Assembly: GCA_028287285.1 (NCBI GenBank)
Contig: JAQBPY010000254.1
Location: 1,507 to 65,506, forward strand
Direction: 5' to 3'
DNA length: 64,000 nt
Origin: Gemmatimonadota bacterium
GTDB taxonomy: Bacteria; Gemmatimonadota; Gemmatimonadetes; Gemmatimonadales; Gemmatimonadaceae
Of the stretch, positions 1 to 22,500 are shown one piece after another; positions within the stretch are counted from its first letter, which is position 1, and each line of letters begins with the position of its first letter. Under the pieces are notes generated by a model. That model had not been told where the DNA came from. It searched no databases and saw only the letters and a list, made by a program, of their open reading frames with translations. Both the position numbers and the translations under genes were made by a program.

Positions 1-1874
1 GCACGGGCCAGCTCACGGCCGTGGGGCCTGGCTTTGCCACCATCAACGTGACGAGCAGTGAGTCCACCACGGGCTCGGTGACGGTTCAGGTGTGCCCGAA
101 TCTCGCGGTTGGCGAGGTGTATACCACGTCTGGACCAGGCGCGGGAAACGTCTGTGTCGGCGGCACCGCGTCCGATGCGGAGTACACGTACATGCCGCTG
201 AATACGTCCACTTCCGGTGCCAGCCTGAGGACCATTGGCACGGGTATTCAGGCCGTGACGGGACCACCTACTCCCGACCGTATTCCAACGAGCGTTGCGA
301 GCAACCTTGGTCCGCTTCCAGCATCCTCCGTTGTCAACGACTTTTCGATTGGCACATTTGCCGGTGCGGATGCCAAGCTCGCTGCGTTCCAGGCCAGACG
401 GGCATTCCGGCAGTCAATCCCCCGTGCCACCGCGCCGGAATCGTCAAATGAGGATGTGCATGGCCCGTCCGCGCTGAATGAGGTAAGCCCTACGGCAAGC
501 GGCGTCGCGCCAGCAGAGGGCGCAGATGAGCGGCTCACGTGGTATCCCACCGAGACGAGCGCCGGGCACGTCAATGTTTCTGCTGATGCGATGGTGTCGG
601 GAAGCCTCGCCCTCAGGATGATGTCGGTTCCCTCCGTTGGAGACGCCGTTTCCTACAACACGAACAGCGCGTGTTCCGGGTCTCCGTCCGTTAGAACAGG
701 GCTGGTGCGATCCGTTTCGCAGCACGCCATCATCGTGTCGGACACCATGAATCCGACTGGTGGATTCACCACGGCGCAATACGACTCCATGGCACTGGAG
801 TTTGATACCATCGCCTGGCCCGTGGACTCCGCGAACTTCACGGACCCAACGGACATCGATGTGAACGGGCATGTCATCATTTTCTTTACCCGAGCGTTGA
901 ATGAACTCTCACCTCCAGCGTCCTCGTCGGTGATTCCGGGCTTCTTTGCGAGCAAAGACGTTTTTGGATCTGATGACTGCAGCAACAGCAATGGGGCCCC
1001 AACGATGGGTACGGAAATATTGTACATGGCCGTGCCGGATCCCACGGGGTCCATCAACTCGAACGTGCGGACGGTGTCCTTTGTTCGAGGAAGCGCCATT
1101 GTCACTGCCGTCCACGAGTTCCAGCACCTGATCAATGGCTTCGCGCGCGCATATGTGACCGGCGCATCATTCTTCGAGACGGCATGGACGAACGAAGCGC
1201 TCTCCAGTGTCGCAGAAGAGCTGGCATTCTACCGCACCAGCGTGGGCCTGGCTCCGAAGCAGAACATCGTTGTGGGCAATATCAACACCGGGCCAGATGC
1301 GAGCAGGCGCGTTACGGCGTTCAATGCATTCGCGAATCCGAACTTCGGCAGGCTGCGGCCATGGCTGCAACGCCCGGACACCACGGGTATCACGAGCGGT
1401 ACATCCGCCAATACCTTGGCCCCGCGTGGTATCTCCTGGGCATTCCTGCGATATGCGTCGGACCGTGCCAACGTCGGCGACCCGACATTCTTCCGCAATA
1501 TGGTCAACAGCAATCTCGAGGGGATTCCCAACATCCAGCATGCCATTGGAGGAATGGATCCCTGGCAGTGGCTACGCGATTGTATCATCGCTCTCTACGC
1601 GGATGACGCGATCTCGGTTGCCACGCAATACAAAACGCAGAGCTGGGATTATCGCTCCATGTATGGCGCACTCAGTAGCGGCGGTTATGTGAACGTGCTC
1701 GTTCCCCGTGCCCTCACCAACAACGTCGCCCTCACACTTTTGTACAAGGGCGGTGGTGCGAGCTCGTTCGACCGCTTCGGCGTGCCGGCCACGAAATTCG
1801 CGAACATCAACTTGACCCAGTCATCAGCAGCACCACTGCCCACGGTGCTGTTGGCCATCATCAGAACCAAGTAG
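1..1874 (+). CDS. Secreted HExxH zinc metallopeptidase with Big_2-like Ig domain, paralog 1 (5' end outside window)
   Basis: Reading frame is open to nt 1. PGFATINVTSSESTTGSVTVQVCPNLAVGEVY aligns by eye with PGFATINITSTESTTGSVTIQVCPNLAVGEVY in the 12357..14960 paralog. HExxH site is VHEFQHLIN, with NEALSSVAEE downstream. Both paralogs end in RTK. Confidence 0.75.
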   Translation, partial: TGQLTAVGPGFATINVTSSESTTGSVTVQVCPNLAVGEVYTTSGPGAGNVCVGGTASDAEYTYMPLNTSTSGASLRTIGTGIQAVTGPPTPDRIPTSVASNLGPLPASSVVNDFSIGTFAGADAKLAAFQARRAFRQSIPRATAPESSNEDVHGPSALNEVSPTASGVAPAEGADERLTWYPTETSAGHVNVSADAMVSGSLALRMMSVPSVGDAVSYNTNSACSGSPSVRTGLVRSVSQHAIIVSDTMNPTGGFTTAQYDSMALEFDTIAWPVDSANFTDPTDIDVNGHVIIFFTRALNELSPPASSSVIPGFFASKDVFGSDDCSNSNGAPTMGTEILYMAVPDPTGSINSNVRTVSFVRGSAIVTAVHEFQHLINGFARAYVTGASFFETAWTNEALSSVAEELAFYRTSVGLAPKQNIVVGNINTGPDASRRVTAFNAFANPNFGRLRPWLQRPDTTGITSGTSANTLAPRGISWAFLRYASDRANVGDPTFFRNMVNSNLEGIPNIQHAIGGMDPWQWLRDCIIALYADDAISVATQYKTQSWDYRSMYGALSSGGYVNVLVPRALTNNVALTLLYKGGGASSFDRFGVPATKFANINLTQSSAAPLPTVLLAIIRTK

Positions 1875-1887
1875 CACGCTGTGACGG

Positions 1888-1952: not shown

Positions 1953-3155
1953 GTGCCGAGCGCCCTCCGCGTCCTCTTCATTGCCAGCGCATATCCTCGT
2001 TTCGAGGGCGACGTCATCACCCCGTGGCTCGGGGCGACGATCGCGCATCTGCGCGGGGTAGGGGTGGACGTCGAAGTCCTTGCGCCGGCGTACCACGGCT
2101 CGCCGGATCACATCGTGGACGGCGTGCCGGTGCACCGGTTTCGCTACGCAACATCGGCCTGGGAGATGTTGTCGCATGACAATCCCATTCCGTGGCAGCT
2201 CTCGGAGCGGCCAATTCGACTGGGGCTGGTGCCGGGTTACGTGCTCGCCGCCGCTGCCGCTGCCACGCGGCTGGCCAGGAGCGAGCGGTTTGACGTGGTG
2301 CACGCGTTCTGGCCTGTCCCGCATGCCGTGCCGGGCTTGATTGCACGCCGGCTGACGGGAATCCCCCTCGTCTCCACGTTTTTCGGCGCCGAGCTGCACT
2401 GGCTGGCGCGCAAGCACGGGTGGGCTCGGTGGGCCGTTCGCGCAATCGTCAGCCAGTCGGACGCAGTGACGGCCATTTCCACGCACACGGCAAATCAGCT
2501 TCGCGTCGTTGCTCCCGCCGCTCAGCCGTTCGTGGTCCCCTTTGGTGCAGCCACATCACTTGCCGCAGCGGACGCGCATGTGCCGCATGAGGGAGAGCAG
2601 GCCTTTCTGTTCGTGGGCCGGCTCGTTGCCCGTAAAGGAGTGGATGTGCTGCTCGCCGCACTGTCGCAGCTGGACGACGCACGCCTCGTGATCGTGGGCG
2701 ATGGCGCGGAGCGACAGGCACTCGAGGAACAGACTCGCCACCTCGGCATCGCAGATCGGGTAAAGTTCACCGGGTACCTGCCGCGCACGGAGCTCGAGGC
2801 GTACCTGCAATCATGCCTCGCGCTGGTGCTTCCTGCCGTAACCAACGAGGTCGCCGGCACCGAAGGACTCGGTGTCGCGCTGATCGAGGCGCTGTCGTAC
2901 GGCAGGCCGGTCATTGCCAGCGACGTTGGCGGAATACCGGACGTGGTAATCCATGAGCGTACAGGGCTGCTCGTGCCCGAAGGCGACGCCATGGCGCTGG
3001 CGCGGGCAATGGAACGTCTCGAGCGGGACCATGCATTTGCGTGCGAGCTCGGTGAACGTGGCCGCGCACATGTACAGGACCGATTTTCGTGGTCCGCCAT
3101 TGTCGGCGCACTCCGTTCCATCTACGATACCGCGATCACTCGGCGGGCCACGTGA
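1953..3155 (+). CDS. Glycosyltransferase family 4 (GT-B, retaining type)
   Basis: 400-aa ORF with GTG start. C-terminal GT4 signature EGLGVALIEALSYGRPVIASDVGGIPDVVIHERTGLLVPEGD. Confidence 0.8.
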   Translation: MPSALRVLFIASAYPRFEGDVITPWLGATIAHLRGVGVDVEVLAPAYHGSPDHIVDGVPVHRFRYATSAWEMLSHDNPIPWQLSERPIRLGLVPGYVLAAAAAATRLARSERFDVVHAFWPVPHAVPGLIARRLTGIPLVSTFFGAELHWLARKHGWARWAVRAIVSQSDAVTAISTHTANQLRVVAPAAQPFVVPFGAATSLAAADAHVPHEGEQAFLFVGRLVARKGVDVLLAALSQLDDARLVIVGDGAERQALEEQTRHLGIADRVKFTGYLPRTELEAYLQSCLALVLPAVTNEVAGTEGLGVALIEALSYGRPVIASDVGGIPDVVIHERTGLLVPEGDAMALARAMERLERDHAFACELGERGRAHVQDRFSWSAIVGALRSIYDTAITRRAT

Positions 3156-4294
3156 GTGGTGCGCGCATCAATGTCCTGCACTGCTGCTACGATGATCCGG
3201 ACAATCCGTGGGTCGGGGGTGGAGGAGCGCGCCGGATCTTCGAGTTGTATCGTCATCTGCTCGATACCGTCGACGTCACCATCGCGACGGGCGCTTATCC
3301 TGGCGCGCGTGAAGGGCGATTCCATGGACTAGGCGTTCTTCGGCTCGGCAACGGACGCACCTACTTCGGAAGCCGGCTGACGTATGTAGCGGCGGCATCG
3401 CAGCTGCTTCGCACGGCGCACTATGATGTCGCCATCGTGGACCATTCGGCGTATGCGCCAGTGATGATTCCGTCGGGACGTCCCGTGGGCATGACGGTGC
3501 ACCACCTCACCGGCCCGGTGGCGCGGGAGCGTTGGGGCAGGCTTGGCGGCGCGGCACTCGCACGCGTGGAACGCGCGACGCTGCGCCGAGCGCGCGTGTT
3601 GAGCGCCACGTCGTCAGCCACCGAGCAGGCGTTGCGGGCCATCCTCGCCCCCGACGTCCGCATCGCTCGCGTTTCGTCAGGCGTGGCAGATGAATTCTTC
3701 GGGTTGGTCCGGCACGAGGCGGACTACGTGGCGTACGTGGGCCGGCTCGACGCGGTGCAAAAGGGGCTCGATGTACTGCTCGATGCATGGGCGCTGTTCT
3801 GCCGCTCCAACCTCACCACACACTTGTTCATTGCCGGACGCGGGCCGCATGAGCGCATACTGCGCGCGCAGGCGGAGCGGCTTGGACTCGACACTCGTGT
3901 CACTTTTCTTGGTGCATTGGCCAACGACGCGCGGAACACACTTCTAGCGGGTGCCGCGTGCCAGGTGATGCCCTCACGCTTTGAGGGATTCGGTATCGTG
4001 GCCGCCGAGGCACTCGCCGCCGGTGTGCCGCTCATCGTGTCCGATGATCCGTCGCTGCGCGAGATTGTTGGAGGTCCCGACGCGGGGGTCGTGGTGCCGC
4101 GCGGCGACGTTGATGCACTTGCAGGCGCGCTGCAGCGACTCTTGTTGGACGGGGCAGGGCGCATCCGGTTGTCGGCGCGGGGCAAGGCGCGCGCGGAGCA
4201 GTTTCGCTGGCGTGTCGTTGCCGACGCGCACATTGAATACCTTCACAGCATCATTGCCGCCGGCGGGCGGTCGGGGTACCAGAGTCGCGCATGA
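3152..4294 (+). CDS. Glycosyltransferase family 4
   Basis: EGFGIVAAEALAAGVPLIVSDDPSLREIVGG motif. Preferred start is GTG 3152 (GTGA overlap with the upstream stop). The ORF track extends to 3089, which would overlap the upstream gene by 67 nt. Confidence 0.75.
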   Translation: MSGARINVLHCCYDDPDNPWVGGGGARRIFELYRHLLDTVDVTIATGAYPGAREGRFHGLGVLRLGNGRTYFGSRLTYVAAASQLLRTAHYDVAIVDHSAYAPVMIPSGRPVGMTVHHLTGPVARERWGRLGGAALARVERATLRRARVLSATSSATEQALRAILAPDVRIARVSSGVADEFFGLVRHEADYVAYVGRLDAVQKGLDVLLDAWALFCRSNLTTHLFIAGRGPHERILRAQAERLGLDTRVTFLGALANDARNTLLAGAACQVMPSRFEGFGIVAAEALAAGVPLIVSDDPSLREIVGGPDAGVVVPRGDVDALAGALQRLLLDGAGRIRLSARGKARAEQFRWRVVADAHIEYLHSIIAAGGRSGYQSRA

Positions 4295-6741
4295 GCCTTC
4301 GTCAATTCCTGAGTGATCCTGCAGAGGAGCCGGCGCATCGCGCGATCACGCGCGGAGCGCTCGTGCTGTATGCGGCCGTCGCACTGGTGTTCTTCGCACC
4401 GGCATTCCTGCCGGGCCAGCAGATCGGTGGCACCGACTACCTCACCGGCGGCTACTACTTCCTGGAATTTGCAATGCGCCGGATAGGCGCGGGCGCGTTG
4501 CCAAAATGGGTGCCGTACATTTTTGGCGGCTTGCCCATGTACGCCAATCCGGGCGGGCTGTTCTATCCCGTGCGGCTGCTGATGTCGGCGCTGCTGCCGG
4601 TTGCGCGGGTGATGCCTGCCGTCTTCGTTGTCCAATTCGCACTTGCCGGTATCGGCACACATCTCCTGGTGCGCGCGCTGGGAGTGCGGCACTGGGTCGC
4701 GCTGATCGCGGGGGTCGCATTCGAGCTCACGGGTGTGAGCATCTCGTACGTGTATGCGGGGCACGACGGCCGCATCATCGTGGCAACGCTGTCGCCGTTC
4801 GTTTTCTATTTCGTGTTGAGCGCTGTACGCTCCGGCGAGTTGCGCTGGTTCGTGGGGCTCGCGGTCACTCTGGCGTTCGCGCTGCTCTCGGCGCAGATCC
4901 AGAGCACGTACTACCTGTTGATCGCGGGTGGGCTGTGGGCGGCGTTCCTGCTGGTGAAGTTTCGCCGGGACATGCGCGGCCTCCAGCTCGGATCGCGGAC
5001 GGCACTCGGTCTCGCCGCGGTGGCGCTCGCCTTTGGCGTGGCAGCGGTGAACCTTCTTCCGTTCTCGGGCTACATCAAGGATTCTCCCCGCGCCGAAAGC
5101 ACGAACAGGGACTACGCGTTCTCGACACAGTTCTCCATGCCGCCCGTGGAGACAATGGGCATGGCGGTGCCGGAGCAGGCGGGCATCCTCGGCAATTATC
5201 ACGGCGAGAACGAGTTCAAGCTCCACACCGAGTACGTGGGGGCGTTGGTGGTGCTGATGCTCCTTGTCGGTGTGATGCTGTCGCGGCGAGACAGCACGTG
5301 GCAGTTCATGGGTGGGCTCGCCGCTTTCATGCTGTCGATCAGCTACGGCTCGCACACGCCGCTTTACCGGCTGTACTACATCGCGCTGCCGGGCACGGCG
5401 AAGTTTCGCTCTCCGTCCATCGCACTCTACCTGGTATCGTTGTGCGTCGTCGTCATGGCGGCCCTGACCCTCGAGCGGCTCGCACGTCTGAGCGCCGACC
5501 GCGAGTCGAGTCCCGATGTGCGCAGGCTGGGCAAGGCCGCCAGACTCCTCACGGCTTCTGCCGAGGTTTCGCTGGTGGGGTTCCTGATCGCCGCGGGCAC
5601 CGCGGTTGACGGAAGCGATCGCGCGTTGGGATGGGCGCGCTTCTTCATCTTTGCGTGGGTAACGGCCGTCGTGCTGCGCCGGCTCGCGCGTGGAACGGTT
5701 ACGCTTCGCGCGGCGACGCTCATTCTCCTGGTAACCACCGCCAGCGATCTGCTGTTGATCGATCGGCACTTCATCACCACCGAAGGTGCGCCCGATACCG
5801 TGTTCGCCGAAGATGACGTGGTGCACTACCTGAAGGGCCACACGCCGGGCCGCGTGTGGGTATTTCCCTTTCCCGAGGATGCGAAGGCGGCGCACTACAT
5901 CGCCAACGGCCGGTTTGGTCCACGCTCGGACTACCTGATGCACTTCGGCATCGCGCAGGCAGGCGGTGAGCACGGAAACCAGCTCTACCGGTGGAACCAG
6001 CTCGTGGGCATCGCGAAGAACGGCAATGTGCTCGACTGGCACAATTTCGTGGAGTATCCGGCCATCATGGAGGCCGCGAGCATCCGGTACATCCTGAGTG
6101 GCGTACAGCTGCAGCTCTACGACATGAAGACAAAACAGGGCATGCCGGGCATCAAGGAGGTGCACAACGGCTCCGCGTTCATCTACGTGAACAACCGCGC
6201 GCTGGGACGTGCGCAGCTCGTGCCCACGGTGCGCGTGGTCAAGGATGGCGGCGCACTGGCCGTCATGCGCACGAATGACTGGGATCCGCGCATGGTGGCC
6301 GTCGTCGAGGCGCCGGCCGCCCCGTTCACGAGTCCGGAGCTGCCGCCCGTGGGCCCGACGGGGCCCGACGGTTTGCCCACGAGCGCCCTGGCGATACCAG
6401 GATCCACCCAGATCGACGTTGACGACCCGGATCATGTCGAGGTGTCCGTGCGCGCCACGGCGCCCGCCATGCTTGTCCTCAACGACAACGACGCAGATGG
6501 ATGGATCGCCACGATCGATGGGCGTGAGACGCCCATTCTCCGTACGAACCATGCGTTCCGCGGCGTGGCGGTAACGGCGGGTGCGCACAAGGTGGTCTTC
6601 AGCTTCAGGCCACGACTTTTCTACACCGGGTTGTGGATCTCCCTCGCCGCCGTGCTCGTGCTGGGTGCGGGAGTGGTGGTGGCACTCCTCCAACTCGTGC
6701 GAACCTCGCGTTCGGCGCGGCTCCTGCCTGCTGCCGCCTGA
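4291..6741 (+). CDS. YfhO-like polytopic membrane protein (GT-C-type glycosyltransferase candidate), paralog 1
   Basis: 816 aa, ATGA overlap with the upstream GT4. Many N-terminal TM segments, a large C-terminal extracytoplasmic part and a final TM (LWISLAAVLVLGAGVVVALLQLV). Motifs GTDYLTGGYYFLEF and WVPYIFGGLPMYANPG. Paralog at 17864..20248. Confidence 0.6.
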   Translation: MSLRQFLSDPAEEPAHRAITRGALVLYAAVALVFFAPAFLPGQQIGGTDYLTGGYYFLEFAMRRIGAGALPKWVPYIFGGLPMYANPGGLFYPVRLLMSALLPVARVMPAVFVVQFALAGIGTHLLVRALGVRHWVALIAGVAFELTGVSISYVYAGHDGRIIVATLSPFVFYFVLSAVRSGELRWFVGLAVTLAFALLSAQIQSTYYLLIAGGLWAAFLLVKFRRDMRGLQLGSRTALGLAAVALAFGVAAVNLLPFSGYIKDSPRAESTNRDYAFSTQFSMPPVETMGMAVPEQAGILGNYHGENEFKLHTEYVGALVVLMLLVGVMLSRRDSTWQFMGGLAAFMLSISYGSHTPLYRLYYIALPGTAKFRSPSIALYLVSLCVVVMAALTLERLARLSADRESSPDVRRLGKAARLLTASAEVSLVGFLIAAGTAVDGSDRALGWARFFIFAWVTAVVLRRLARGTVTLRAATLILLVTTASDLLLIDRHFITTEGAPDTVFAEDDVVHYLKGHTPGRVWVFPFPEDAKAAHYIANGRFGPRSDYLMHFGIAQAGGEHGNQLYRWNQLVGIAKNGNVLDWHNFVEYPAIMEAASIRYILSGVQLQLYDMKTKQGMPGIKEVHNGSAFIYVNNRALGRAQLVPTVRVVKDGGALAVMRTNDWDPRMVAVVEAPAAPFTSPELPPVGPTGPDGLPTSALAIPGSTQIDVDDPDHVEVSVRATAPAMLVLNDNDADGWIATIDGRETPILRTNHAFRGVAVTAGAHKVVFSFRPRLFYTGLWISLAAVLVLGAGVVVALLQLVRTSRSARLLPAAA

Positions 6742-6742
6742 C

Positions 6743-7693
6743 ATGACGGACGGCGCGCCGGCTCAACCGCCACGGCAGCGCGCCGCGCCATTTCGCCTCG
6801 CCCGGCTGGCGGCCGTCATCGTGCTTGCGGCGGCGTCCATACTGTACATGGGAACCGCACTCGCTCGCGCGCGCGGCAGTCTGCACAGCATCGCATGGCT
6901 GGCGCACCCGGGCGAGCTTGCGGCAAGCATCGCCATTCAGGCTGTGTCGCTGACGCTGGGCTGCCGCATCTGGTTCGAGATCCTTCAGCGGATCGCGCCC
7001 TCGCCCGTGACGGCAGTGCAGCACTGGCGCATCTGGGCACTCACGAATCCAACACGCTACATCCCCGGCCGCATCTGGCACGTGGCGTCGCTCGCGGCGT
7101 TCATGCGGTCTGCCGGCGTGACACCCGTCGCGATGCTGACGTCGATCGTGGTGCACATGTGGCTCTACGTCCTTGCCGCGTGCGCCATGGGACTCGTGCT
7201 GCTTCCGGTCACGCCAGCATCCGTGGCGGGGGCGGTGGCAGTACTGTGTGGCGTGGCCGCTGGAACGCACCCGCGCCCCCTTCGGGCGATGCTCCACATT
7301 GCATCACGCCTGAGCGGGCAGCCCGCACTCGAGTGGCGCAGCGGCTGGCTCCCAACCCTTGCACTTGTTGCTGCCGACGTGGGCATCCATTCGCTGAATG
7401 GGCTGGGCGTTAGCACGCTGTTAGGGGCAACAATGGATCTTCCCGTGAGCAGCTGGCTGCACGTCGCGGGCGCAAACGCGATCGCCTTCCTCGCCGGATA
7501 CGCCAGCATGGTTCCCGCAGGGCTCGGCGTGCGTGAAGCGACGTTGACGGCTCTTCTGGAGGGAAATTCAATGGCCGGAGGAGCCGCCGCGGCCGCGCTG
7601 GTGGTGCGTGCGGCGGCAACCTTCGTCGAAGTGCTGCTGGCGCTCGTCGCCGGGGTGATGCCAAGAGCTCAGGGGCCTGTTACCGGCGCGTAA
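6743..7693 (+). CDS. UPF0104 / LPG-synthase-TM-like 'flippase-like' membrane protein
   Basis: ATG at 6743, 1 nt after the yfhO-like stop. Polytopic, with YIPGRIWHVASL and VPAGLGVREATL (P-x-G-x-G-x-x-E type motif). The ORF-track extension to 6581 overlaps the upstream gene. Confidence 0.6.
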   Translation: MTDGAPAQPPRQRAAPFRLARLAAVIVLAAASILYMGTALARARGSLHSIAWLAHPGELAASIAIQAVSLTLGCRIWFEILQRIAPSPVTAVQHWRIWALTNPTRYIPGRIWHVASLAAFMRSAGVTPVAMLTSIVVHMWLYVLAACAMGLVLLPVTPASVAGAVAVLCGVAAGTHPRPLRAMLHIASRLSGQPALEWRSGWLPTLALVAADVGIHSLNGLGVSTLLGATMDLPVSSWLHVAGANAIAFLAGYASMVPAGLGVREATLTALLEGNSMAGGAAAAALVVRAAATFVEVLLALVAGVMPRAQGPVTGA

Positions 7694-11078: not shown

Positions 11079-11114
11079 TGGCGGGACTGTCGGACGCGAC
11101 GATACTGTGCGGGG

Positions 11115-15275: not shown

Positions 15276-15551
15276 TCAGGTCGCCTGACGAATCAGGGTC
15301 TGTTCGCTGAGGTCGCGGAGCAGTGCATTCACGGCATCGGTTGCCACATTCGAGGAAACATCGAAGGTGGCGACCAGTTGCGCCGTGATGCTATCCGTAT
15401 CAAGGCCGCTCTCCAGCAACTTCCATACGTGCGCACCCACGCGATTGAGCCGGAAGTAGTGTTTGCTGCCCATGTGGAGCAGGATCGCCTCGCCGTCCAG
15501 GTGTGACACGAGGACATCGGGTGAGGGCACGTAGCGCAGCGCGGTGCTCAT
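15276..15551 (-). CDS. PqqD-family protein (stand-alone RiPP recognition element candidate)
   Basis: 91 aa. VLVSHLDGEAILLHMGSKHYFRLNRVGAHVWKLLESGLDTDSI matches the PqqD pattern (dge.vll...yy.LN..ga.iW.ll). Its start codon abuts the stop of the upstream propeller gene. Confidence 0.75.
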   Translation of the reverse strand: MSTALRYVPSPDVLVSHLDGEAILLHMGSKHYFRLNRVGAHVWKLLESGLDTDSITAQLVATFDVSSNVATDAVNALLRDLSEQTLIRQAT

Positions 15552-16709
15552 CTATCTGATTGCCGCCGAATGTTCGGTGGAGAGCGCGGCCACGGGAATG
15601 GCGTGGAGCTCAAATGGAATGGCAGGATCCACCCAGCGCAGCGACGACTCGTTCCCGCTGAAGGTGGTGAACACGATGCGTCCATCGGAAAGCCATGCAG
15701 GCTGGCCGCTCGACGCCGTGTTCCGCGTGATTTGAGCGGTCGCATTGGTCCGCAGATCGCGCACGAAGATTTCCGTCGCTCCGCCAATGACCGCGGCATA
15801 CGCGAGACGGAAGCCATCGGGACTCCATGCCGGCTCCACTTCCACGCCCTGCGTTCCCGAGCCCGTCACCAGCACCGGCGTGGCACCCGCTGTGGCCGCA
15901 CTCGTGAACAGGCCCGAGGACCCCGTATTCGTCGAGGCAGACACGAACGCGATCTTGTCCGAGGCAGGCGCCCATGTGGGAGAGGATTCAGGCGCCGACG
16001 GGCTGCCGAAGGTCGCAACGGCAAGACGCGCCGCGCCCGACACGGGAGTCGTGGCCGCCGCCAGGTTGAGCGACGCGATCCATATCTTGCTCACGCCGCT
16101 CGCGTTGGTGGTGTACAGGACGTGCTTCGCATCCGGAGCAATGGACGGCTGCGTCTCACTCTCGTCCGACGTGGTCAGGCGCCGCTCCACGCCCGTGGCC
16201 AGCGACAACGAATACAGCTCCGCATTCCCGTCGCGAAAGCTGGAGTAGAGCACGACGTCGCCCGCGACGGTGGGCCTGGCATCGTCGCCCGCGTTGGTGG
16301 TGAGGCGCGTGAGTGACGTGCCGTCGAGCGCAACGCGATAGATGTCGCGATTCCCGGCGGCGCGTCCGTCGAACACGATGAGCGGAGGGGTGGCTACGGT
16401 GACGGACAGCGAGAGGCTGGTACCGTCGGGGGCGGTGGCGGTGAACACCACCACGCCGGCCTTGGTGAACTGCACGTCGCCGCTGGCCGCGATGGTCACC
16501 GCATCGGCGGGGCTGGCGGCAAGCGCTGACACGGCGGCGACGGAAGAGCCGTCGCCCGTGCTGCTCCGCGCACCCACGTGTGCCGTGAGGCCGCGCTCGG
16601 TGCGGCCGGCGACGGCCAGCGAATACGGCGACGAAGGTGCCACGCCCTTGTCGCCGCCGCAGGCGACGGCGGCGAGGAGAATCACAACGGCTCCGCGGAC
16701 TATACGCAT
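15552..16709 (-). CDS. TolB-like (PD40) beta-propeller lipoprotein
   Basis: Signal MRIVRGAVVILLAAVACGGD (lipobox). Repeated PD40-like units (RLTTNAGDDARPTVAGDVVLYSS, RLTTSDESETQPSIAPDAKHVLYTT, EVEPAWSPDGFRLAY, SSGQPAWLSDGRIVF). Start chosen at ATG 16709, a 10-nt overlap with the rSAM stop. The track ORF to 17120 overlaps the rSAM gene. Confidence 0.7.
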   Translation of the reverse strand: MRIVRGAVVILLAAVACGGDKGVAPSSPYSLAVAGRTERGLTAHVGARSSTGDGSSVAAVSALAASPADAVTIAASGDVQFTKAGVVVFTATAPDGTSLSLSVTVATPPLIVFDGRAAGNRDIYRVALDGTSLTRLTTNAGDDARPTVAGDVVLYSSFRDGNAELYSLSLATGVERRLTTSDESETQPSIAPDAKHVLYTTNASGVSKIWIASLNLAAATTPVSGAARLAVATFGSPSAPESSPTWAPASDKIAFVSASTNTGSSGLFTSAATAGATPVLVTGSGTQGVEVEPAWSPDGFRLAYAAVIGGATEIFVRDLRTNATAQITRNTASSGQPAWLSDGRIVFTTFSGNESSLRWVDPAIPFELHAIPVAALSTEHSAAIR

Positions 16710-17692
16710 GCGGCGACTCCCTGCCATGCACTTGCCTCGCCCTCGGCGAGCCACTTGAGCTTTCCGAGCGCGTGCGCGCAACGGAGACACGGGAGCGTGG
16801 CGAGCGCGCCCGAAAAATTGGATGGTGCCGCCTTGGCGCGAAGGGACGCCATTGACTCGAGATAGATGTTCCATGCATCGCGGAACGACATGTCGTGCAG
16901 GTCTGCCACGACGTCGCTCTCGGTGAATCCATATTCGGACATCTGGCAGCAGAGGGACACGCGTCCGTTGGCGTCCACGTACACGCGATTGAGCGCCATC
17001 GTATCGCAGACAGTCTCCGTCTTTCCGTCGAGCGGCGGCGCGCCGTAGTCGAGCTGAATGACGGTGCGCCGGTGCGGCTCGGCGGCGATGGCGTCGATCT
17101 CCCTCTGAACGGCGGGCCATTCATGCGGTGCGAGATCGCTGTCGCGTACAACGCTGCCGGGCACCGGCTGCGGCAGGATATAGTGCAGGCGGAGGCAGCC
17201 GAGGCTCTCGGCGAGATCCGCGACCGTGCGCACTTCGTGCCGGTCCCTCCGATCGATGACGATGGAGAGCGCGTTGGGAATCTGACGGCTGGTGAGCAGC
17301 GCAATGGCCATGAGCACGCGGCGAAAGCTGTCACGCCCGCGATCTGCATCGTGTGTCTCTTCCGAGCCGCCGGACAGGCTCACCCGCACGTATGACGGTG
17401 GCCAGCGGTCGAACGAGGGCATCATGCGGCGCATGTGCCACCCATTGGTGACCAGGCGGTATGCGATGCCTCGTGCCGCCAGCGCGGAGACGATCTCGTC
17501 CCAGCCCTTGTGCAGCGTGGGCTCTCCGCCGGTAAAGCTGGCCGTGACGCTTCCGAAGAGCTCCAGGGCCTCGTCGCACGTGCGTATGACGAGCTCGGGC
17601 TCCAGCGAGCGTACCTTCAGCACGTCATCGCGAATGCAGTGCGGACAGCGAAGGTTGCAATGTGTCGTAAGCGCAAAACCCAGCAGCATCAA
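16700..17692 (-). CDS. Radical SAM enzyme with partial SPASM/twitch-like C-terminal domain
   Basis: N-terminal LTTHCNLRCPHCIRDD is CxxxCxxC. C-terminal C-x13-G-x4-CC (CDTMALNRVYVDANGRVSLCC) matches the first half of the SPASM motif. A later CLRC is present, but the full CX2CX5CX3C is absent. Confidence 0.8.
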   Translation of the reverse strand: MMLLGFALTTHCNLRCPHCIRDDVLKVRSLEPELVIRTCDEALELFGSVTASFTGGEPTLHKGWDEIVSALAARGIAYRLVTNGWHMRRMMPSFDRWPPSYVRVSLSGGSEETHDADRGRDSFRRVLMAIALLTSRQIPNALSIVIDRRDRHEVRTVADLAESLGCLRLHYILPQPVPGSVVRDSDLAPHEWPAVQREIDAIAAEPHRRTVIQLDYGAPPLDGKTETVCDTMALNRVYVDANGRVSLCCQMSEYGFTESDVVADLHDMSFRDAWNIYLESMASLRAKAAPSNFSGALATLPCLRCAHALGKLKWLAEGEASAWQGVAACV

Positions 17693-17863: not shown

Positions 17864-20248
17864 ATGATGTCACGGATGCAGTCTGGACCGCCGCTTCAGC
17901 CAGCCGAATGGCCTGTGATCACGCTTCGGGCGATCGCCGTATACCTGCTGTTGGCGTTCATGGCCTTCGCCCCTGCGTTCTTTCCATGGCAGCAGATCGC
18001 CGGCACGGACTACGTCACCGGCGGCTTCTACTTCCTGGAGTATGCCGCGCGCGCGCGGCAGGGGGGCCACTTCCCCACGTGGGTTCCCTACATCTTTGGC
18101 GGGGTTCCCATGTATGCGAACCCGGGCAGTCTGTTCTACCCCGCGCGGATGCTGTTCATCGAGATCCTGCCCCTCGAGCGTGTGATGCCGGCGCTGTACG
18201 TCGTGCAATTCGCGCTCGCCGGCATCGGCATGCATCTCTTTGCGCGGACCCTGGGTGTGCGTCCGTGGGTCGCGTTCCTTGGCGGCCTGCTCTATGAGTT
18301 CACCGGGGTCACGTTCTCGTACGTGTATGCCGGTCATGATGGCCGCATCATAGGCGCGACGCTCGCGCCGTTCCTGTTCTACTTCGTGACGGTGGCCGTG
18401 CGCACCGGCCGCGCATCCTGGTTCGCCGGCATTGCCGCGAGCGTCGGACTGATGCTGCTTTCCTTCCAGCTCCAGAGCACCTATTACGTGCTGCTCGGTG
18501 CCGGGGCATGGGCCGTGTTTCTCCTGGCGCGCGCGCGCGCCGGCATGCCCACGCCGGTGCTCGTGCGCCGTGCCGTGCTGGGTGGCGCGGCGGTGGCGTT
18601 CGGCTTCATGCTCGCTGCCGTGAATCTGCTTCCGTTCTCCGGCTATGTGGAGGATTCCCCGCGCAGCAGCGTGGCCAAGCGGGACTACGCGTTTTCCACG
18701 CAGTTCTCCATGCCGGTGGTGGAGACCGTGGGCCTGGCGGTGCCGGAGCAGGCGGGCCTGCTCGAGGAGTACAAGGGCGACAACCCCTTCAAGCTACATA
18801 CCGAGTACGTGGGCGCGATCGTCCTGCTGCTGCTCGTGGTGGGAGCGATGAGCTTTCAGCGGGATGCCGTCTGGCAGTTCATGGCCGGCCTCGCGCTGTT
18901 CATGCTGACCGTCTGTTACGGCTCGTATACGCCGCTCTACTCCCTCTATTACCGCGTTCTCCCCGGTACGACGAAGTTCCGCTCGCCCTCCATTGCGCTT
19001 TTCATGGTGTCCTTTGCGCTGGTCGTCATGGCCGTGCTCACACTGGAGAGCATGGCCGATGCGCTCGACGAACGACCAGCGTCGCGCGGCTTCGTCCTTC
19101 CGCGGCGCCTGCTGACGGCGCTCATCGGCGCGTCGGTGCTCATCGTCACCGTCGCACTCGGCACCGCGCTCGATGGCGGACACCGGGCGCTGGGGTGGGC
19201 GCGCTTTGGCGTGTGCCTGCTGCTCGCCTCGCTCATCGTCCGCACCTGGATCTTCGGGCGCATCAGGGTGCGCACGGCCTCCATACTGCTCAGCGTCCTG
19301 GCGGTGGCGGATCTCTGGGTCGTGGATCGCAACTTCCTGTGGACGCAGCCTGTCTCCGACATCGTCTACGCGGCGGATGACGTGGTTCACTTTCTCAAGT
19401 CCATGCCCGATGCGCGCGTGTGGGTATTTCCATTTCCCAATGCCGCGGGCGCGGAGCACTACATGGGCAACAAACGCTTCCCGCCCAATAGCGACTACCT
19501 AATGCACTTCGGCATCAGGCAGGCGGGAGGCGAGCATGGCAACCAGCCTTTCCGCTGGAATCGCCTCGCTGGAATCGGGACCACCGGTAATGTGGACTGG
19601 CACAACTTCGTGGAGTATCCCGCCATTCTTGGGGCGGCGGGAGTGAAGTACATCGTGAGCGCGGTGTCGCTGAGCATGGTGAAGGGCAAATCCCGCATGG
19701 GAATGAAAGGGCTGCGCGAGCTGTACCATGGAAGCGCGTACGTATACGAGAACGAGAGCGCCGTTCCGCGCGCCACGCTCGTGCCCTCCGCCGTGTCGGT
19801 GTCGTCGCCACAGGTCGCGGTCATCGCCATGCGGAACGCCGATTGGGACGCACGCAGGGTAGCGGTGGTGGAAGGTGCGTTGCCGGAGCTCGCGGATACG
19901 TCAGCGGCCGGCATGTCGGCGGCCAGCACGGTACGCATGGTCGTGGATGAACCCGAGCACGTTGCCATTCACGTGGATGCCGAACGCCCGGCGCTCCTCG
20001 TGCTCAGCGACAATTATGTCGAAGGATGGACGGCGCGCGTGGATGGAAGCACGGTCCCCATCCTGCGCACCAACCTCGCTTTTCGCGGCGTGCCCGTATC
20101 GAAGGGATCGCATGACGTGGTCTTCGAGTTCGCCCCACGCCGACTTTACGCGGGCATGTGGATGTCGTCGGTTGGCTGGACGGTGCTCCTGATCTCCGTC
20201 GCAGGGCTCGTGTTTACAGGACGGCGGCGCGAGCCGGCCATCGGCTAA
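17864..20248 (+). CDS. YfhO-like polytopic membrane protein (GT-C candidate), paralog 2
   Basis: 794 aa, co-linear by eye with 4291..6741 (GTDYVTGGFYFLEY, WVPYIFGGVPMYANPG, FSTQFSMP, HFGIRQAGGEHGNQ). C-terminal TM present. Confidence 0.6.
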   Translation: MMSRMQSGPPLQPAEWPVITLRAIAVYLLLAFMAFAPAFFPWQQIAGTDYVTGGFYFLEYAARARQGGHFPTWVPYIFGGVPMYANPGSLFYPARMLFIEILPLERVMPALYVVQFALAGIGMHLFARTLGVRPWVAFLGGLLYEFTGVTFSYVYAGHDGRIIGATLAPFLFYFVTVAVRTGRASWFAGIAASVGLMLLSFQLQSTYYVLLGAGAWAVFLLARARAGMPTPVLVRRAVLGGAAVAFGFMLAAVNLLPFSGYVEDSPRSSVAKRDYAFSTQFSMPVVETVGLAVPEQAGLLEEYKGDNPFKLHTEYVGAIVLLLLVVGAMSFQRDAVWQFMAGLALFMLTVCYGSYTPLYSLYYRVLPGTTKFRSPSIALFMVSFALVVMAVLTLESMADALDERPASRGFVLPRRLLTALIGASVLIVTVALGTALDGGHRALGWARFGVCLLLASLIVRTWIFGRIRVRTASILLSVLAVADLWVVDRNFLWTQPVSDIVYAADDVVHFLKSMPDARVWVFPFPNAAGAEHYMGNKRFPPNSDYLMHFGIRQAGGEHGNQPFRWNRLAGIGTTGNVDWHNFVEYPAILGAAGVKYIVSAVSLSMVKGKSRMGMKGLRELYHGSAYVYENESAVPRATLVPSAVSVSSPQVAVIAMRNADWDARRVAVVEGALPELADTSAAGMSAASTVRMVVDEPEHVAIHVDAERPALLVLSDNYVEGWTARVDGSTVPILRTNLAFRGVPVSKGSHDVVFEFAPRRLYAGMWMSSVGWTVLLISVAGLVFTGRRREPAIG

Positions 20249-22500
20249 CGGCCGATGACGGGGGCGTAGCCCAGCCCGGTGGGCGCCTCGAGCACGGGGC
20301 CGCGGCGGAGATAGCGCACAAAATCCACCGCACGCCCCATCCGCAGCACATCGTCGCGCAGGCGTTTCGCGCCCGCGTGATTGCCCGTTGAATCCTGTGC
20401 ATCGGCAAGGGCAACGCCGATGCGCAGGTACAGGTAGGGCATGTTCGCCGAGGCTTCGTCCGTCCATACGCCGCGCGCACCCATGGATTCGCGTGCGTGG
20501 AGATGATCCCAGAGCGATTGCGTCCGGGCCACGTCGAGCAGGCCCACATGCTTCGTCATGATGGCGCCGGGTATCGCGGCGGCGTTCGGCACGACCTTGC
20601 GCGCGAGACCCTGGGTGAGCAGGTGGGGCTTGAGGAAATTGTCGATGACTTCAGACCCTGCGGCCCCGCTGAAGTACACAGGCCGCGCCCGTCCCGCGGT
20701 CTGGATGATGCGCATCATGACCAGCACGTCGCGGTCGATGGTCATTGCCGGAATGGTGAGGTCGAAACCCGGCATTCGAACGCTCTGTGCCCGGAGTGTG
20801 CGTGTATGTGCGGGAATCGAGTCAGCCTGCGCGAGCGTGAAATCGAGCACGGGCTGGCGAAGCGGCGTCACCGGCACGGTGCGGTAGATGGCCGGCCCCG
20901 TGGCGGCATCGTACGGCTCGGGCACGCGTGCGATCAGCTCCCGCGCGTACCAGTCGGTGGACAGGTATGGCGTGAGCACGACGGATACATCGCGGCGCAC
21001 GCCAAGCACCTGCTGTGCGAACCAGAGAGGAAACGAATCGTTGTCGCCGCCGGTAAAGAGAATGGCATTGGGCTCGACGCTGTTGAGCATGTCGACGGCG
21101 AAGTCCTGGGCGAAGCGATCCGCTCGGCGCGATGCCGAGCTCCAATTGGCGAAGAACGGAATGAGCGCGACGGCAAGGACGACCGACGTGAGGGGCCAGC
21201 GCCGCTCGAGCAGCTCCGCCCATGGATCATCCTGGGATGGGGTATTGGTGGTGGAGAACTCCGACAGGGCCTTCCAGACAAAGGCGAGACCCAGGCCGAT
21301 CCAGATGGCGAGCGCGGAGAAGCTCCAGAGGTAGAAGTAATCCCTGTCGCGTGTTTCGCGCGCGTTGGGATCGGCAATCATCATGGTGATGGCCTGGGTG
21401 TAGCCGAGCTTGAAGTTCAGGTAGACGATGAGGCCGGCTGTGAGCGTGGCGACCAGCGTGGCGAAGGGGACGAATGTCTGCCGGTCGTAGCGCCAGTGCG
21501 CGTAGGCTCCCGCACCGGCGAGGAGCAGCATGAGGATGGCGAGGGCACTCTGGGCCTCGGGAGCGGTCCACCGCACGTCTCGCAGCCACTGCCACTTGAA
21601 GTACATCCACCACATGGCGACCTGGTTGGGCAGTGTCTGCTGCCGGTCCAGGATGGAGGGCTTGGCGTACTGTGTTCGATTGTGCGCGTAGAGAAATCGG
21701 TTGACGGTCTCGCGGCTGACGGTGCAGCCCCAGTGTGGACGTCCATCTTCGCACGCCGTTGGATGCCCCTCATTGATGTCGAGGCGAAATGCGGCGCGAA
21801 TGGGCAGTGCGGCGAAGGGTGTGAACCCCAACAGGAACAATGCACCGCATGCCATGAGGAATCGGGTGCGGCGCAGCGTGCTCGGCCGAGTGTACAGCAC
21901 TGCGGCGAGCACTGCGGGGCCGGCAAGCAGGCCGGCGATGTGCACGGTATATCCGAGGCCCAGCCGGTAGCAGATGAGCATGAGCCGACGGTCCGCGGCG
22001 GGGCCATCGGGGTTGGACTGCCATCGGATCGCGGTCCAGACGTCGAGCACGAGGAGGAAGAGCGAGATGGTGTAGACCTTCTCGTTCACGACGGACTGGT
22101 TCCAGACGGTAAACGCGGTGGCGCCGAGGATCGCGCAGGCGGCGGCAGCGTATCGTGCCCGTGGCACGGTGAGCCAGTGTCGCACGACGTGCTCGGCGAC
22201 CAGGAACCAGAGACCGGAGGACAGTGCACTCGCGAGCGCGACCAGGACGTTGAGGCGCATCGCCGCGGTGCGGGCGAGGGGCAGCATCGTCGCTAGGCGG
22301 CCGAGCAGCAGGAATCCGGGATTTCCGGGCGGATGCGGAATGCCCATGCCCACGGCGGCGGCAACGTATTCGCCGGAGTCCCAGAGCCCGATGGTTGGTG
22401 CGAGCGTGAGCAGGTAGAGCGCAAAAACGCCGAGTGCTACGCCCGCTGCCGTTCGGTAGGAGGGCGTGGCGATCACATGGTCATTCTGCGCGATCGTCAA
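20245..22500 (-). CDS. DUF2723 (TMEM260-like) GT-C family membrane protein, paralog 2
   Basis: LAPTIGLWDSGEYVAAAVGMGIPHPPGNPGF. Co-linear with 7669..9963 down to the C-terminus (LEAPTGLGYAPVIGR vs LEAPTGLGYAPVTGP). Track start 22500 is TTG; GTG 22476 is an alternative. Confidence 0.7.
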   Translation of the reverse strand: MTIAQNDHVIATPSYRTAAGVALGVFALYLLTLAPTIGLWDSGEYVAAAVGMGIPHPPGNPGFLLLGRLATMLPLARTAAMRLNVLVALASALSSGLWFLVAEHVVRHWLTVPRARYAAAACAILGATAFTVWNQSVVNEKVYTISLFLLVLDVWTAIRWQSNPDGPAADRRLMLICYRLGLGYTVHIAGLLAGPAVLAAVLYTRPSTLRRTRFLMACGALFLLGFTPFAALPIRAAFRLDINEGHPTACEDGRPHWGCTVSRETVNRFLYAHNRTQYAKPSILDRQQTLPNQVAMWWMYFKWQWLRDVRWTAPEAQSALAILMLLLAGAGAYAHWRYDRQTFVPFATLVATLTAGLIVYLNFKLGYTQAITMMIADPNARETRDRDYFYLWSFSALAIWIGLGLAFVWKALSEFSTTNTPSQDDPWAELLERRWPLTSVVLAVALIPFFANWSSASRRADRFAQDFAVDMLNSVEPNAILFTGGDNDSFPLWFAQQVLGVRRDVSVVLTPYLSTDWYARELIARVPEPYDAATGPAIYRTVPVTPLRQPVLDFTLAQADSIPAHTRTLRAQSVRMPGFDLTIPAMTIDRDVLVMMRIIQTAGRARPVYFSGAAGSEVIDNFLKPHLLTQGLARKVVPNAAAIPGAIMTKHVGLLDVARTQSLWDHLHARESMGARGVWTDEASANMPYLYLRIGVALADAQDSTGNHAGAKRLRDDVLRMGRAVDFVRYLRRGPVLEAPTGLGYAPVIGR

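Follow-up and report, generated by a model that had tools for sequence, protein, structure and literature searches.

A duplicated YfhO/DUF2723 glycosyltransferase pair and a RiPP-like cassette in a putative cell-envelope locus of a Gemmatimonadota bacterium

The region analyzed here is the first 22,500 nucleotides of a 64,000-nucleotide stretch of DNA from a Gemmatimonadota bacterium (assembly GCA_028287285.1, contig JAQBPY010000254.1, positions 1,507 to 65,506), the whole of which is referred to below as the window. It encodes two copies each of an M30-like lipoprotein peptidase (pepA and pepB), a YfhO-like membrane glycosyltransferase of the GT-C type (yfhoA and yfhoB), and a second GT-C enzyme of the TMEM260-like DUF2723 family (dufA and dufB). 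With them lie genes for three glycosyltransferases of family GT4, one of family GT2, and a UPF0104 membrane protein, and a cassette resembling those for peptides that are ribosomally synthesized and modified after translation (RiPPs), which comprises a small precursor gene and genes for a PqqD-family protein, a PD40 lipoprotein, and a radical SAM (rSAM) enzyme. The G+C content of the window is about 64%, and the open reading frames (ORFs) supported by G+C at third codon positions form a compact gene map over positions 1 to 22500 (Table 1). A previous reading of these letters without database searches, called here the sequence-only reading, had described the region as a segmental duplication of a peptidase-YfhO-DUF2723 triad with different cargo inserted into each copy, namely, two GT4 genes and UPF0104 in module 1 and the rSAM/PqqD cassette in module 2. 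The analysis below indicates that the region is not two equivalent triads with foreign cargo; an ancestral operon together with a two-gene unit that was duplicated describes it better.

The three paralogous pairs themselves are real. At the coordinates given in Table 1, each pair can be aligned from end to end with a BLASTP E value of 0, both modules show the same gene order and the same orientations (+, +, -), and MAFFT and codon analysis gives 55% amino acid and 60% nucleotide identity for pepA and pepB (dN 0.40, dS 1.8), 55% and 62% for yfhoA and yfhoB (dN 0.38, dS 1.2), and 63% and 66% for dufA and dufB (dN 0.30, dS 1.3). Nucleotide-level alignment between the modules is limited to coding stretches, at 64 to 73%. 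The C-terminal motifs that had been noticed are also kept, as RTK ends both peptidases and LEAPTGLGYAPV ends both DUF2723 proteins, and no additional copy of the peptidase, YfhO, or DUF2723 is present in the remaining 42 kb of the window. The pairwise identities and dS values proposed as a check indicate that the duplication is ancient, with dS saturated (1.2 to 1.8); dating by dS is therefore uninformative, and relative protein distances were used instead. Both GT-C copies stayed under purifying selection.

The history of the pairs was analyzed with neighbor-joining (NJ) trees (100 bootstraps), for which the comparison loci are all metagenomic. The closest relative is a 1.2-Mb metagenome contig, labeled R1 here and read as loci L084 and L001. 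Its gene set is that of the window (two peptidases, two YfhO proteins, two DUF2723 proteins, three GT4 enzymes of which one is fused to UPF0104, one GT2, the rSAM cassette, and the small ORF) and is bounded by the genes that flank the set in the window (TspO, two conserved hypotheticals, HhH-GPD, and PALP). In R1, the block formed by the rSAM cassette, the B copy of YfhO, and the B copy of DUF2723 occupies the opposite end of the locus, with the cassette in inverted orientation. NJ trees recover A and B copies of all three families in R1 as well. For DUF2723, clade A holds the A copy of the window with L001, L088, and L086 (100% bootstrap) and clade B the B copy of the window with L084 and L134 (90%); for YfhO, clade B holds the B copy of the window, P0129 of R1, P0125, and P0126 (100%), and clade A holds yfhoA, P0122 of R1, and L088. 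As each A and B clade contains a copy from R1, the duplication predates the split between the window and R1.

The distance between paralogues relative to that between orthologues is 1.33 for YfhO and 1.30 for DUF2723, and the two genes are convergent and abutting not only twice in the window but also in L001, L084, L086, L088, L134, and L167. It is well supported by these gene arrangements and trees that YfhO and DUF2723 form a true two-gene unit, which would have been duplicated as such before the organism of the window and R1 diverged, because the pair has this arrangement in both modules as well as at six further loci, its A and B clades are concordant, and its ratios are nearly identical.

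The peptidase does not follow this pattern. Its ratio of 1.08 makes the split between pepA and pepB barely older than speciation, and pepA pairs, at 95% bootstrap, with an R1 peptidase whose gene lies upstream of the rSAM cassette and of the B-type pair and adjoins them. Genes of the pepB type adjoin the A copy of DUF2723 in the window, in L001, and in L088, and by synteny pepB belongs to module 1 (yfhoA-dufA-GT4c-GT2-pepB) as much as to module 2. The peptidase thus appears also to have been duplicated in this lineage, though not demonstrably in the GT-C event, and a single event copying all three genes is possible. The proposal of one segmental duplication is supported for YfhO and DUF2723, with their concordant trees and ratios of 1.33 and 1.30, and is less certain for the peptidase, with the ratio of 1.08 and a pepA orthologue beside the B-type pair in R1.

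Gene neighborhoods in other genomes separate the peptidase from the GT-C enzymes further. In GTDB species genomes, 79 loci anchored on the peptidase were surveyed, of which 47 span at least 12 kb; YfhO occurs within 10 kb of the peptidase in none (0/79) and DUF2723 in one (1/79), which does not support the triad as a functional unit; within the same distance rSAM and PqqD are each found at 3/79 loci, PD40 at 4/79, and a second peptidase at 18/79. Conversely, YfhO-DUF2723 pairs without an M30 peptidase are present in L086 and L167. Outside the immediate clade, then, the triad is unlinked in other genomes. The peptidase homologues are almost restricted to Gemmatimonadota (Longimicrobium and Gemmatimonadaceae) and are often multicopy or in tandem. 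An old co-duplication is well supported for the two-gene GT-C unit, and the argument of the sequence-only reading that conserved linkage means that the proteins work together is not supported for the three-gene triad, given the absence of YfhO from the 79 peptidase loci and the GT-C pairs that lack M30.

Neither does the supposed cargo look inserted. In L089, a sister lineage of the combined A and B YfhO clade, the order is peptidase-GT4-GT4-YfhO-UPF0104-GT2-LTD-NTP_transf_5, followed on the opposite strand by HPr-kinase-like, Transglut_core3, PqqD, PD40, and rSAM genes and then by the small ORF, and the first part of this order matches module 1. DUF2723 is absent from L089; an ORF at its 3' edge was checked as a hidden DUF2723 and is not one. 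In the distant Gemmatimonadota loci L161 and L162, GT4-(methyltransferase)-GT4-YfhO-UPF0104 is flanked by GT2 genes and lies next to rpoN-lptB-lptC-kdsD-kdsC-kdsA. Among 35 YfhO-anchored metagenome loci (39 to 52% identity) with enough downstream sequence, the gene directly downstream of YfhO is UPF0104 in 22 and DUF2723 in none. As GT4-GT4-YfhO-UPF0104 is found phylum-wide, module 1 would have kept the ancestral operon and module 2 would be a stripped duplicate. Similarly, the rSAM/PqqD/PD40 cassette accompanies this peptidase family without any GT-C gene in Gemmatimonadaceae/Gemmatimonas loci L008, L009, and L019, which argues for an old partner of the peptidase rather than an insertion; judging by gene neighborhoods, the link of peptidase and cassette is older and wider than that of peptidase and GT-C enzymes. 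In R1 the second GT4 is fused to UPF0104 in a 685-amino-acid GT-B-PplT protein (L084, 15839 to 17896), the two being separate genes on either side of yfhoA in the window.

Table 1. Genes and domain sites of the locus (window coordinates unless another locus is named)
Feature	Coordinates	Strand	Support or remark
pepA, M30-like lipoprotein metallopeptidase	1..1874	+	C-terminal 623 amino acids of 885-amino-acid protein P0004
GT4a, cytoplasmic GT-B glycosyltransferase	1953..3155	+	Pfam Glycos_transf_1 5e-42; 60% identity to L084 GT4 (414 amino acids)
GT4b, second GT4	3152..4294	+	Pfam Glycos_transf_1 3e-33; ORF open from 3089, start uncertain
yfhoA, YfhO-like GT-C membrane glycosyltransferase, A copy	4291..6741	+	Pfam YfhO 45.3 bits; about 11 hydrophobic segments
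UPF0104/PplT (MprF-flippase-like) membrane protein	6743..7693	+	Weak Pfam LPG_synthase_TM and NCBIfam MprF matches
dufA, TMEM260-like (DUF2723, CAZy GT117-like) GT-C, A copy	7669..9963	-	Pfam TMEM260-like 134.1 bits; convergent with yfhoA/UPF0104
GT4c, third GT4, 372 amino acids	9960..11078	-	GTG start at 11078; 4-nucleotide overlap with co-directional dufA
GT2, polyprenyl-phosphate glycosyltransferase, ArnC/GtrB/PgfS-like	11115..12101	+	Two C-terminal transmembrane helices; absent from the sequence-only reading
pepB, 867-amino-acid M30-like lipoprotein metallopeptidase	12357..14960	+	Lugdulysin sequence and fold matches; lipobox LLSC
RiPP-like precursor, 59 amino acids (MSKAI...LPPLTELTLVTGAGIHGGGGSSGGSVF)	15035..15214	+	AGGA Shine-Dalgarno 8 nucleotides upstream; absent from the sequence-only reading
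PqqD-family peptide chaperone (RiPP recognition element, RRE)	15276..15551	-	Pfam PqqD 57.7 bits; NCBIfam lasso-type PqqD 7e-15, below cut-off
PD40/TolB-like beta-propeller lipoprotein	15552..16727	-	Four Pfam PD40 repeats, 69 bits; lipobox LAAVACGG; absent from the sequence-only reading
Radical SAM/SPASM-type peptide maturase	16700..17692	-	Pfam Radical_SAM 75.9 bits; 77% identity to L084 rSAM
yfhoB, YfhO-like GT-C, B copy	17864..20248	+	Pfam YfhO 38.7 bits
dufB, TMEM260-like GT-C, B copy	20245..22500	-	Pfam TMEM260-like 137.7 bits; convergent with yfhoB
N-domain sites elsewhere	L001 1712-2092; L086 15127-15675; L134 4038-4418; L163 9542-9940, 13967-14524		Also in L166 and L167

Several gene calls in this map differ from those made before. 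What had been taken for one GT4 gene at 9960 to 11732 is GT4c together with a divergent GT2 gene, which was concealed beneath a spurious N-terminal extension of the GT4 ORF on the opposite strand; the N-terminal 238 amino acids of that long ORF appear noncoding, and the shorter GT4c is 62% identical over its full length to the 372-amino-acid GT4 upstream of the A copy of DUF2723 in L001. An ORF at 22497 to 23135 was considered as a duplicated counterpart of the long GT4c N terminus and rejected, as the two show no similarity and both stretches look noncoding. The start assigned to pepB (ATG at 12357, lipoprotein signal MPPSKFATIAASVVLLSCGD) was correct, and the interval between pepB and yfhoB holds four genes (precursor, PqqD, PD40, and rSAM/SPASM), where two had been seen. 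GT4a occupies the position of a GT4 in L089, GT4b is 57% identical to the GT4 half of the L084 fusion and its end overlaps the start of yfhoA by 4 nucleotides, and the most likely start of UPF0104 follows a gene call in L083. Convergent genes overlap at their 3' ends by 25 nucleotides for UPF0104 and dufA (7669 to 7693) and by 4 nucleotides for yfhoB and dufB (20245 to 20248). A dispersed intergenic palindromic repeat with the core ~TCTCCCGACAnTCGCTnCGCTCATGCGGGATGACA, resembling repetitive extragenic palindromes or miniature inverted-repeat transposable elements, recurs at 22711 to 22849, 30730 to 30808, 38649 to 38759, and 49374 to 49552, one copy sitting in the 1.2-kb noncoding gap upstream of dufB. 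Scans for Rfam families and for tRNAs over the entire window gave no match, and a look-up of dufB by exact sequence returned no record.

Assignment of the GT-C enzymes draws on family models, predicted topology, and conserved acidic residues. Both YfhO proteins exceed the cut-off of PF09586 (28.5 bits) with only their C-terminal ~70 residues aligned, their database homologues are annotated with this family, and 10 or 11 hydrophobic segments are predicted. D49 of a GTDY motif in the first loop, after the first transmembrane helix (TM1), is invariant in 21 YfhO sequences including both copies of the window. In the context of an ArnC/PgfS-like GT2 in the locus, the YfhO copies would be expected to transfer sugar from a polyprenyl-phosphate sugar to an extracytoplasmic acceptor. 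The DUF2723 proteins match PF11028 over the full model length (cut-off 24.2 bits), and WD[AS]GEY follows TM1 in all eight aligned bacterial DUF2723 sequences including both from the window, in the form WDAGEY in dufA. Their C-terminal tail is specific to the clade and is missing from the outgroup L017.

The GT2 protein is 74% identical to the GT2 of L001 and 66% to that of L089. Residues 9 to 314 of its 328 align to PDB chains of ArnC (8.6e-27) and to GtrB sll0501 (3.5e-15), the full-length NCBIfam matches to ArnC (97 bits, 9e-28) and PgfS (90 bits, 1.5e-25) are both below the equivalog cut-offs, and its C-terminal hydrophobic helices are visible in the translation. UPF0104 scores 17.6 bits against PF03706, below the gathering score of 33.4, as does its L089 orthologue at 29.8 bits, and its positional homologues in L161 and L162 (28 to 41% identity) are annotated with that family; given both, it is treated here as a divergent relative and not as a proven member. 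GT4a, GT4b, and GT4c score 34 to 65 bits against the GlcN-PG synthase model, for which the cut-off is 480.

The peptidase matches no Pfam or NCBIfam family. The complete pepA protein (P0004), encoded on the same 78-kb contig, has its start upstream of the window and carries the lipobox LLLTSCGD. Across 28 sequences including pepA and pepB, H561, E562, E593, and E594 show no variation and H565 has a conservation of at least 90%, giving HExxH with a downstream Glu. A phmmer search against PDB matches pepB to lugdulysin (4.3e-5), and Foldseek matches the catalytic half of an AlphaFold2 model (pLDDT 80) to 7bb9 (E 2.7e-12, TM-score 0.61) and 7bb8 (E 1.3e-11, TM-score 0.66) at 16% identity. From its N terminus, pepB consists of the lipobox, a beta-sandwich termed the N-domain here, Big_2, a disordered linker of ~110 amino acids, and the lugdulysin-like catalytic domain. 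Residues ~351 to 459 of the 867 (window 13407 to 13733) are predicted to be disordered (pLDDT < 30) and are poorly conserved in the family; this segment could be a propeptide or a linker.

The N-domain, which is ~190 amino acids long (window 12399 to 12971 in pepB), is a mobile module that also heads lipoproteins with LTD, with LTD/Big_2/endonuclease, with Big_2 only, and with a GH44 annotation. Genes encoding it cluster beside DUF2723 genes and beside precursor-like small genes. At six DUF2723 loci examined outside the window, an N-domain gene lies directly beside DUF2723 in L086, L088, L134, and L167 and within ~3.5 kb in L001 and L084, the C-terminal domain of these neighbors varying between M30, LTD, endonuclease, and Big_2 only. 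By comparison, 73 YfhO loci without DUF2723 (789 kb) gave three N-domain matches, all in the two closest lineages. Ser and Thr make up 27% of the N-domain and Big_2 parts of pepB. A fold search with the isolated N-domain returned a generic beta-sandwich with CBM3- and Ig-like matches too weak to name the fold (E at least 3e-3, TM-score ~0.35).

The second layer of the locus is the cassette. Its precursor, MSKAIPRTNEFSGTNHSENLTRSPWEMPTLTKLPPLTELTLVTGAGIHGGGGSSGGSVF, is encoded 75 nucleotides downstream of pepB on the same strand and has homologues in all six other cassette loci, among them L084/L001, L089, L008, L009, and L019, so that it is present in 7/7 with the window. Their alignment has 14 invariant columns and the shared motif W..P...LP.L..LTL.TG.GI.G...GGG..V; a leader motif LPxLTELTLxTG precedes a Gly-rich core without Cys that ends in SVF. 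Profile searching retrieved at least 943 relatives of ~50 to 66 amino acids, all without names or Pfam domains, the few with named sources coming from Gemmatimonadota, and Pfam and NCBIfam searches with six precursor peptides found no family. The rSAM protein carries an N-terminal CNLRCPHC, scores 20.7 bits against SPASM (cut-off 21.5), and matches StsB, ScmF, MftC, and PqqE best in NCBIfam, far below their cut-offs (StsB 65 against 625 bits, MftC 55 against 265). No curated cut-off of a named class (pyrroloquinoline quinone [PQQ], mycofactocin, SCM, GeoRSP, sactipeptide, or lasso) is reached, and the locus has no lasso cyclase; what it does have is the combination expected of a RiPP system, a PqqD-type RRE with a short conserved precursor nearby. 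To judge from these features, the precursors look like an undescribed RiPP-like family, and a literature search found no paper on a Gemmatimonadota system of rSAM, PqqD, and precursor.

The PD40 lipoprotein is kept with the cassette in L084, L085, L089, L008, L009, L019, and L163. In L163 and L164 the context is PD40-precursor-rSAM-(N-domain protein)-PqqD-...-Transglut_core3, without an M30 catalytic domain. Fuller cassettes in L089 (12948 to 15535) and L163 (12191 to 12589) include a Transglut_core3 (lasso-B2-like) protease, an HPr-kinase-like protein, and NTP_transf_5, again with no lasso cyclase; by gene content, the window and R1 have evidently lost these three genes. At L165 (5584 to 8174), three precursor-like genes are found with an MbnB/TglH-type (DUF692/MNIO) enzyme and an M28 peptidase in place of rSAM and PqqD, and the same peptide family may serve two maturase classes. 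One precursor-like copy in L166 lies beside LTD N-domain proteins with no maturase in view.

When these results are placed together, we consider it probable (roughly 0.6) that the region is one composite cell-envelope locus of a Longimicrobiia-like soil bacterium of the Gemmatimonadota, in which a RiPP-like cassette has joined a Pgf-like locus for lipid-linked extracytoplasmic glycosylation with a duplicated GT-C pair. Judged by homology, the products of the locus include a donor synthase (GT2), a UPF0104/PplT protein resembling flippases, three GT4 enzymes of the cytoplasm, and four GT-C enzymes, with the acidic first-loop motifs intact in both copies of each GT-C. In the following scheme, we infer the donor, the acceptor, and whatever part the peptidase may play. 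GT2 would charge polyprenyl phosphate with a sugar, the lipid-linked sugar would be flipped across the membrane, for which UPF0104/PplT is the candidate, and the YfhO/TMEM260-like pairs would move the sugar onto an extracytoplasmic acceptor at the periplasmic face. The TMEM260-like GT-C may have been recruited tail to tail with YfhO in the lineage of the window, the pair then being duplicated as a unit. The second layer would be an older RiPP-like cassette (precursor, rSAM/SPASM, PqqD, and PD40) that travels with the M30-like lipoprotein peptidase.

The most likely clients would be the neighboring lipoproteins that share a Ser/Thr-rich N-terminal beta-sandwich and Ig-like Big_2 domains. We favor these because YfhO-type GT-C enzymes of the Pgf/PgtC2 kind O-glycosylate proteins, the Pgf clients being encoded in the same cluster (PMC12041528), and because the sole characterized enzyme with a DUF2723/TMEM260 domain, human TMEM260, O-mannosylates beta-strands of Ig-like IPT domains (PMC10214176).

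The place of the peptidase is less straightforward. It could be functionally separate from the glycosyltransferases and belong with the RiPP-like cassette, for example, processing an exported modified peptide together with the PD40 lipoprotein, in which case its adjacency to the GT-C genes would simply be inherited. The co-occurrence of peptidase, rSAM, PqqD, PD40, and precursor without GT-C in three loci, the closeness of the precursor to pepB on the same strand, and the GT-C pairs of L086 and L167 that lack an M30 domain all speak for this. We nevertheless hold it to be rather unlikely as a full account, since the cassette is found at only 3/79 peptidase loci, the cassettes of L163 and L164 have N-domain proteins without the M30 catalytic domain, some cassettes carry their own lasso-B2-like leader protease, and a precursor-like gene occurs beside LTD N-domain proteins without an rSAM gene in L166 and L084.

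Several points weigh against a composite glycosylation locus with lipoprotein clients. The trees are simple NJ trees in which pepB groups weakly with the peptidases beside the A copy of DUF2723 in L001 and L088, and the loci with the triad have a single common ancestor and are not independent functional evidence. On its 5' side, dufB is followed in the window by 1.2 kb of noncoding sequence and no N-domain gene. A search of sequencing runs for the sequence found one soil-metagenome DNA run and no RNA run. YfhO enzymes also glycosylate teichoic acids (PMC5836110), and the YfhO operon lies beside lipopolysaccharide (LPS) genes in most Gemmatimonadota; together, these suggest that the acceptor may be a glycolipid or LPS and not a protein. 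GT4 with UPF0104 is moreover the architecture of the GlcN-PG glycolipid pathway GpgSDF (PMC12713373). From its modeled fold, the N-domain itself could be a module that binds glycans and not one that carries them.

It is thus conceivable that a lipid or polysaccharide (LPS core, lipid A, or a surface glycolipid), and not a protein, is the target of the GT-C pairs and that the N-domain lipoproteins use their beta-sandwich as a carbohydrate-binding anchor, a possibility that we regard as unlikely. Cell-wall-binding domains encoded beside the synthesis locus of their ligand are a precedent for such an anchor. In its favor, lpt/kds LPS genes adjoin the YfhO operon that is found across the phylum, the nearest match of GT2 is ArnC of the lipid A Ara4N pathway, the N-domain matches best, though weakly, the folds of CBM3-type carbohydrate-binding modules and of accessory domains from chitinases, and in Pseudomonas aeruginosa GT4 with UPF0104 makes, and probably flips, a glycolipid (PMC12713373). 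Those fold matches are not significant, however (E at least 3e-3, TM-score ~0.35), the sole characterized PF11028 enzyme is a protein O-mannosyltransferase (PMC10214176), and YfhO-type GT-C enzymes do glycosylate proteins (PMC12041528). Least probable of the alternatives is a single tandem segmental duplication of a functional peptidase-YfhO-DUF2723 triad, to each copy of which foreign cargo (the GT4s and UPF0104 in one, rSAM/PqqD in the other) was added later: the shared order and orientation with similar divergence (55%, 55%, and 63%), the A and B copies of all three families in R1, and a window order that matches single-module L089 and so may be nearer the ancestral one are outweighed by the phylum-wide ancestry of GT4-GT4 and UPF0104 with YfhO, a cassette that accompanies the peptidase where there is no GT-C, a pepA orthologue flanking the B-type pair in R1 and pepB-type genes flanking the A copy of DUF2723 in three genomes, a ratio of 1.08 for the peptidase against ~1.3 for the GT-C enzymes, and the lack of YfhO at all 79 peptidase loci in other genomes.

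If lipid-linked glycosylation of the neighboring lipoproteins is taken to its furthest consequence, it could be speculated that the convergent YfhO/TMEM260-like pair is a dedicated protein O-glycosylation machine for N-domain/Ig-like lipoproteins (M30 peptidases, LTD proteins, and nucleases), that its duplication yielded two machines differing in sugar or client, and that the Gly-rich 'LTELTLxTG' small proteins are a new and widespread class of Gemmatimonadota RiPPs. All of this together is doubtful; were it true, bacterial DUF2723 would gain its first function, and the O-mannosylation of Ig domains by TMEM260 would have a counterpart in prokaryotes. In a full-text literature search, DUF2723 was met only in the human TMEM260 paper, and no function assigned to a bacterial DUF2723/GT117 homologue came to light. 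The locus gives a testable context for bacterial DUF2723, namely, a donor synthase resembling ArnC/PgfS, a candidate flippase, YfhO as a partner, and lipoproteins that recur as neighbors and are candidate clients. The analysis further brings to light a large family of RiPP-like precursors that lack annotation in Gemmatimonadota (at least 943 relatives) and are associated with rSAM/SPASM or MNIO enzymes. The value of the analysis lies in annotation and in the generation of hypotheses for a poorly studied phylum, and no general principle is changed by it.

Among known systems, one of the closest comparisons is with the Pgf cluster for protein O-glycosylation of Streptococcus mutans, which comprises the GT2 PgfS, PgfE, the YfhO-type GT-C enzymes PgfM1 and PgfM2, and the adhesin genes cnm/cnaB/cbpA within the cluster, and with the GtrB/PgtC2 pathway (PMC12041528). 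The window likewise has a PgfS/GtrB-like GT2 (1.5e-25 to the PgfS model over its full length), at least two GT-C transferases per locus, and secreted Ser/Thr-rich proteins with Ig-like domains encoded in the cluster, and its YfhO proteins match the PgfM1 model weakly at the C terminus. It differs in scores that lie far under the equivalog cut-offs, in a second GT-C that is TMEM260-like where the Pgf cluster has another YfhO, in a diderm host from the Gemmatimonadota, in the lack of an epimerase, in the presence of three GT4s and UPF0104, and in clients that are candidates only. The same logic of GT2, flippase, and YfhO underlies the glycosylation of teichoic acids, where a cytoplasmic GT2 (CsbB/GtlA) makes the C55-P-sugar, a small membrane protein (GtcA) flips it, and a YfhO-family GT-C (YfhO/GtlB) transfers the sugar outside (PMC5836110, PMC7389260, PMC8035078). 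The flippase candidate of the window is UPF0104/PplT, in contrast, and not a member of the GtrA family. To our knowledge, teichoic acids are not expected in Gemmatimonadota.

With human TMEM260 (CAZy GT117; PMC10214176), dufA and dufB share the N-terminal GT-C module of PF11028 (134 to 138 bits), an acidic WDxGE after TM1 where TMEM260 has the essential D52 (a correspondence of position, not an alignment residue by residue), and a large extracytoplasmic C-terminal domain, and the candidate clients in the window carry Ig-like beta-sandwich domains; the donor would be a bacterial polyprenyl phosphate and not dolichol phosphate, and the LEAPTGLGYAPV tail is specific to the clade of the window. 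The peptidases resemble lugdulysin/hyicolysin (MEROPS M30; PDB 7bb8, 7bb9) in HExxH with a downstream Glu and in a fold match over ~380 to 430 aligned columns, whereas identity is only 16% and the Gemmatimonadota proteins are lipoproteins with an extra N-terminal beta-sandwich, Big_2, and a disordered linker of ~110 residues.

The cassette is comparable to the rSAM/SPASM and PqqD cassettes for RiPPs (PQQ, mycofactocin, SCM/GeoRSP, and lasso B1/B2) in having a small conserved precursor beside rSAM/SPASM and a PqqD-type RRE, and its fuller relatives add Transglut_core3 (lasso-B2-like), HPr-kinase-like, and NTP_transf_5 genes. It differs in an rSAM enzyme below all curated cut-offs, in a Gly-rich precursor without Cys and without a family, and in having PD40 and N-domain lipoproteins as constant companions. 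GpgSDF of P. aeruginosa consists of a GT4 synthase, a deacetylase, and a UPF0104 flippase (PMC12713373); GT4 enzymes are encoded with a UPF0104/PplT protein in the window as well, without a deacetylase but with GT-C enzymes and an ArnC-like GT2, and with GT4 scores of 34 to 65 bits against a cut-off of 480. The 685-amino-acid GT4-UPF0104 fusion of R1 matches the GT-B-PplT architecture listed among PplT-domain fusions (bioRxiv 10.1101/2022.03.11.483950). Taken across these comparisons, the locus is a lineage-specific and moderately unusual elaboration of known kinds of system.

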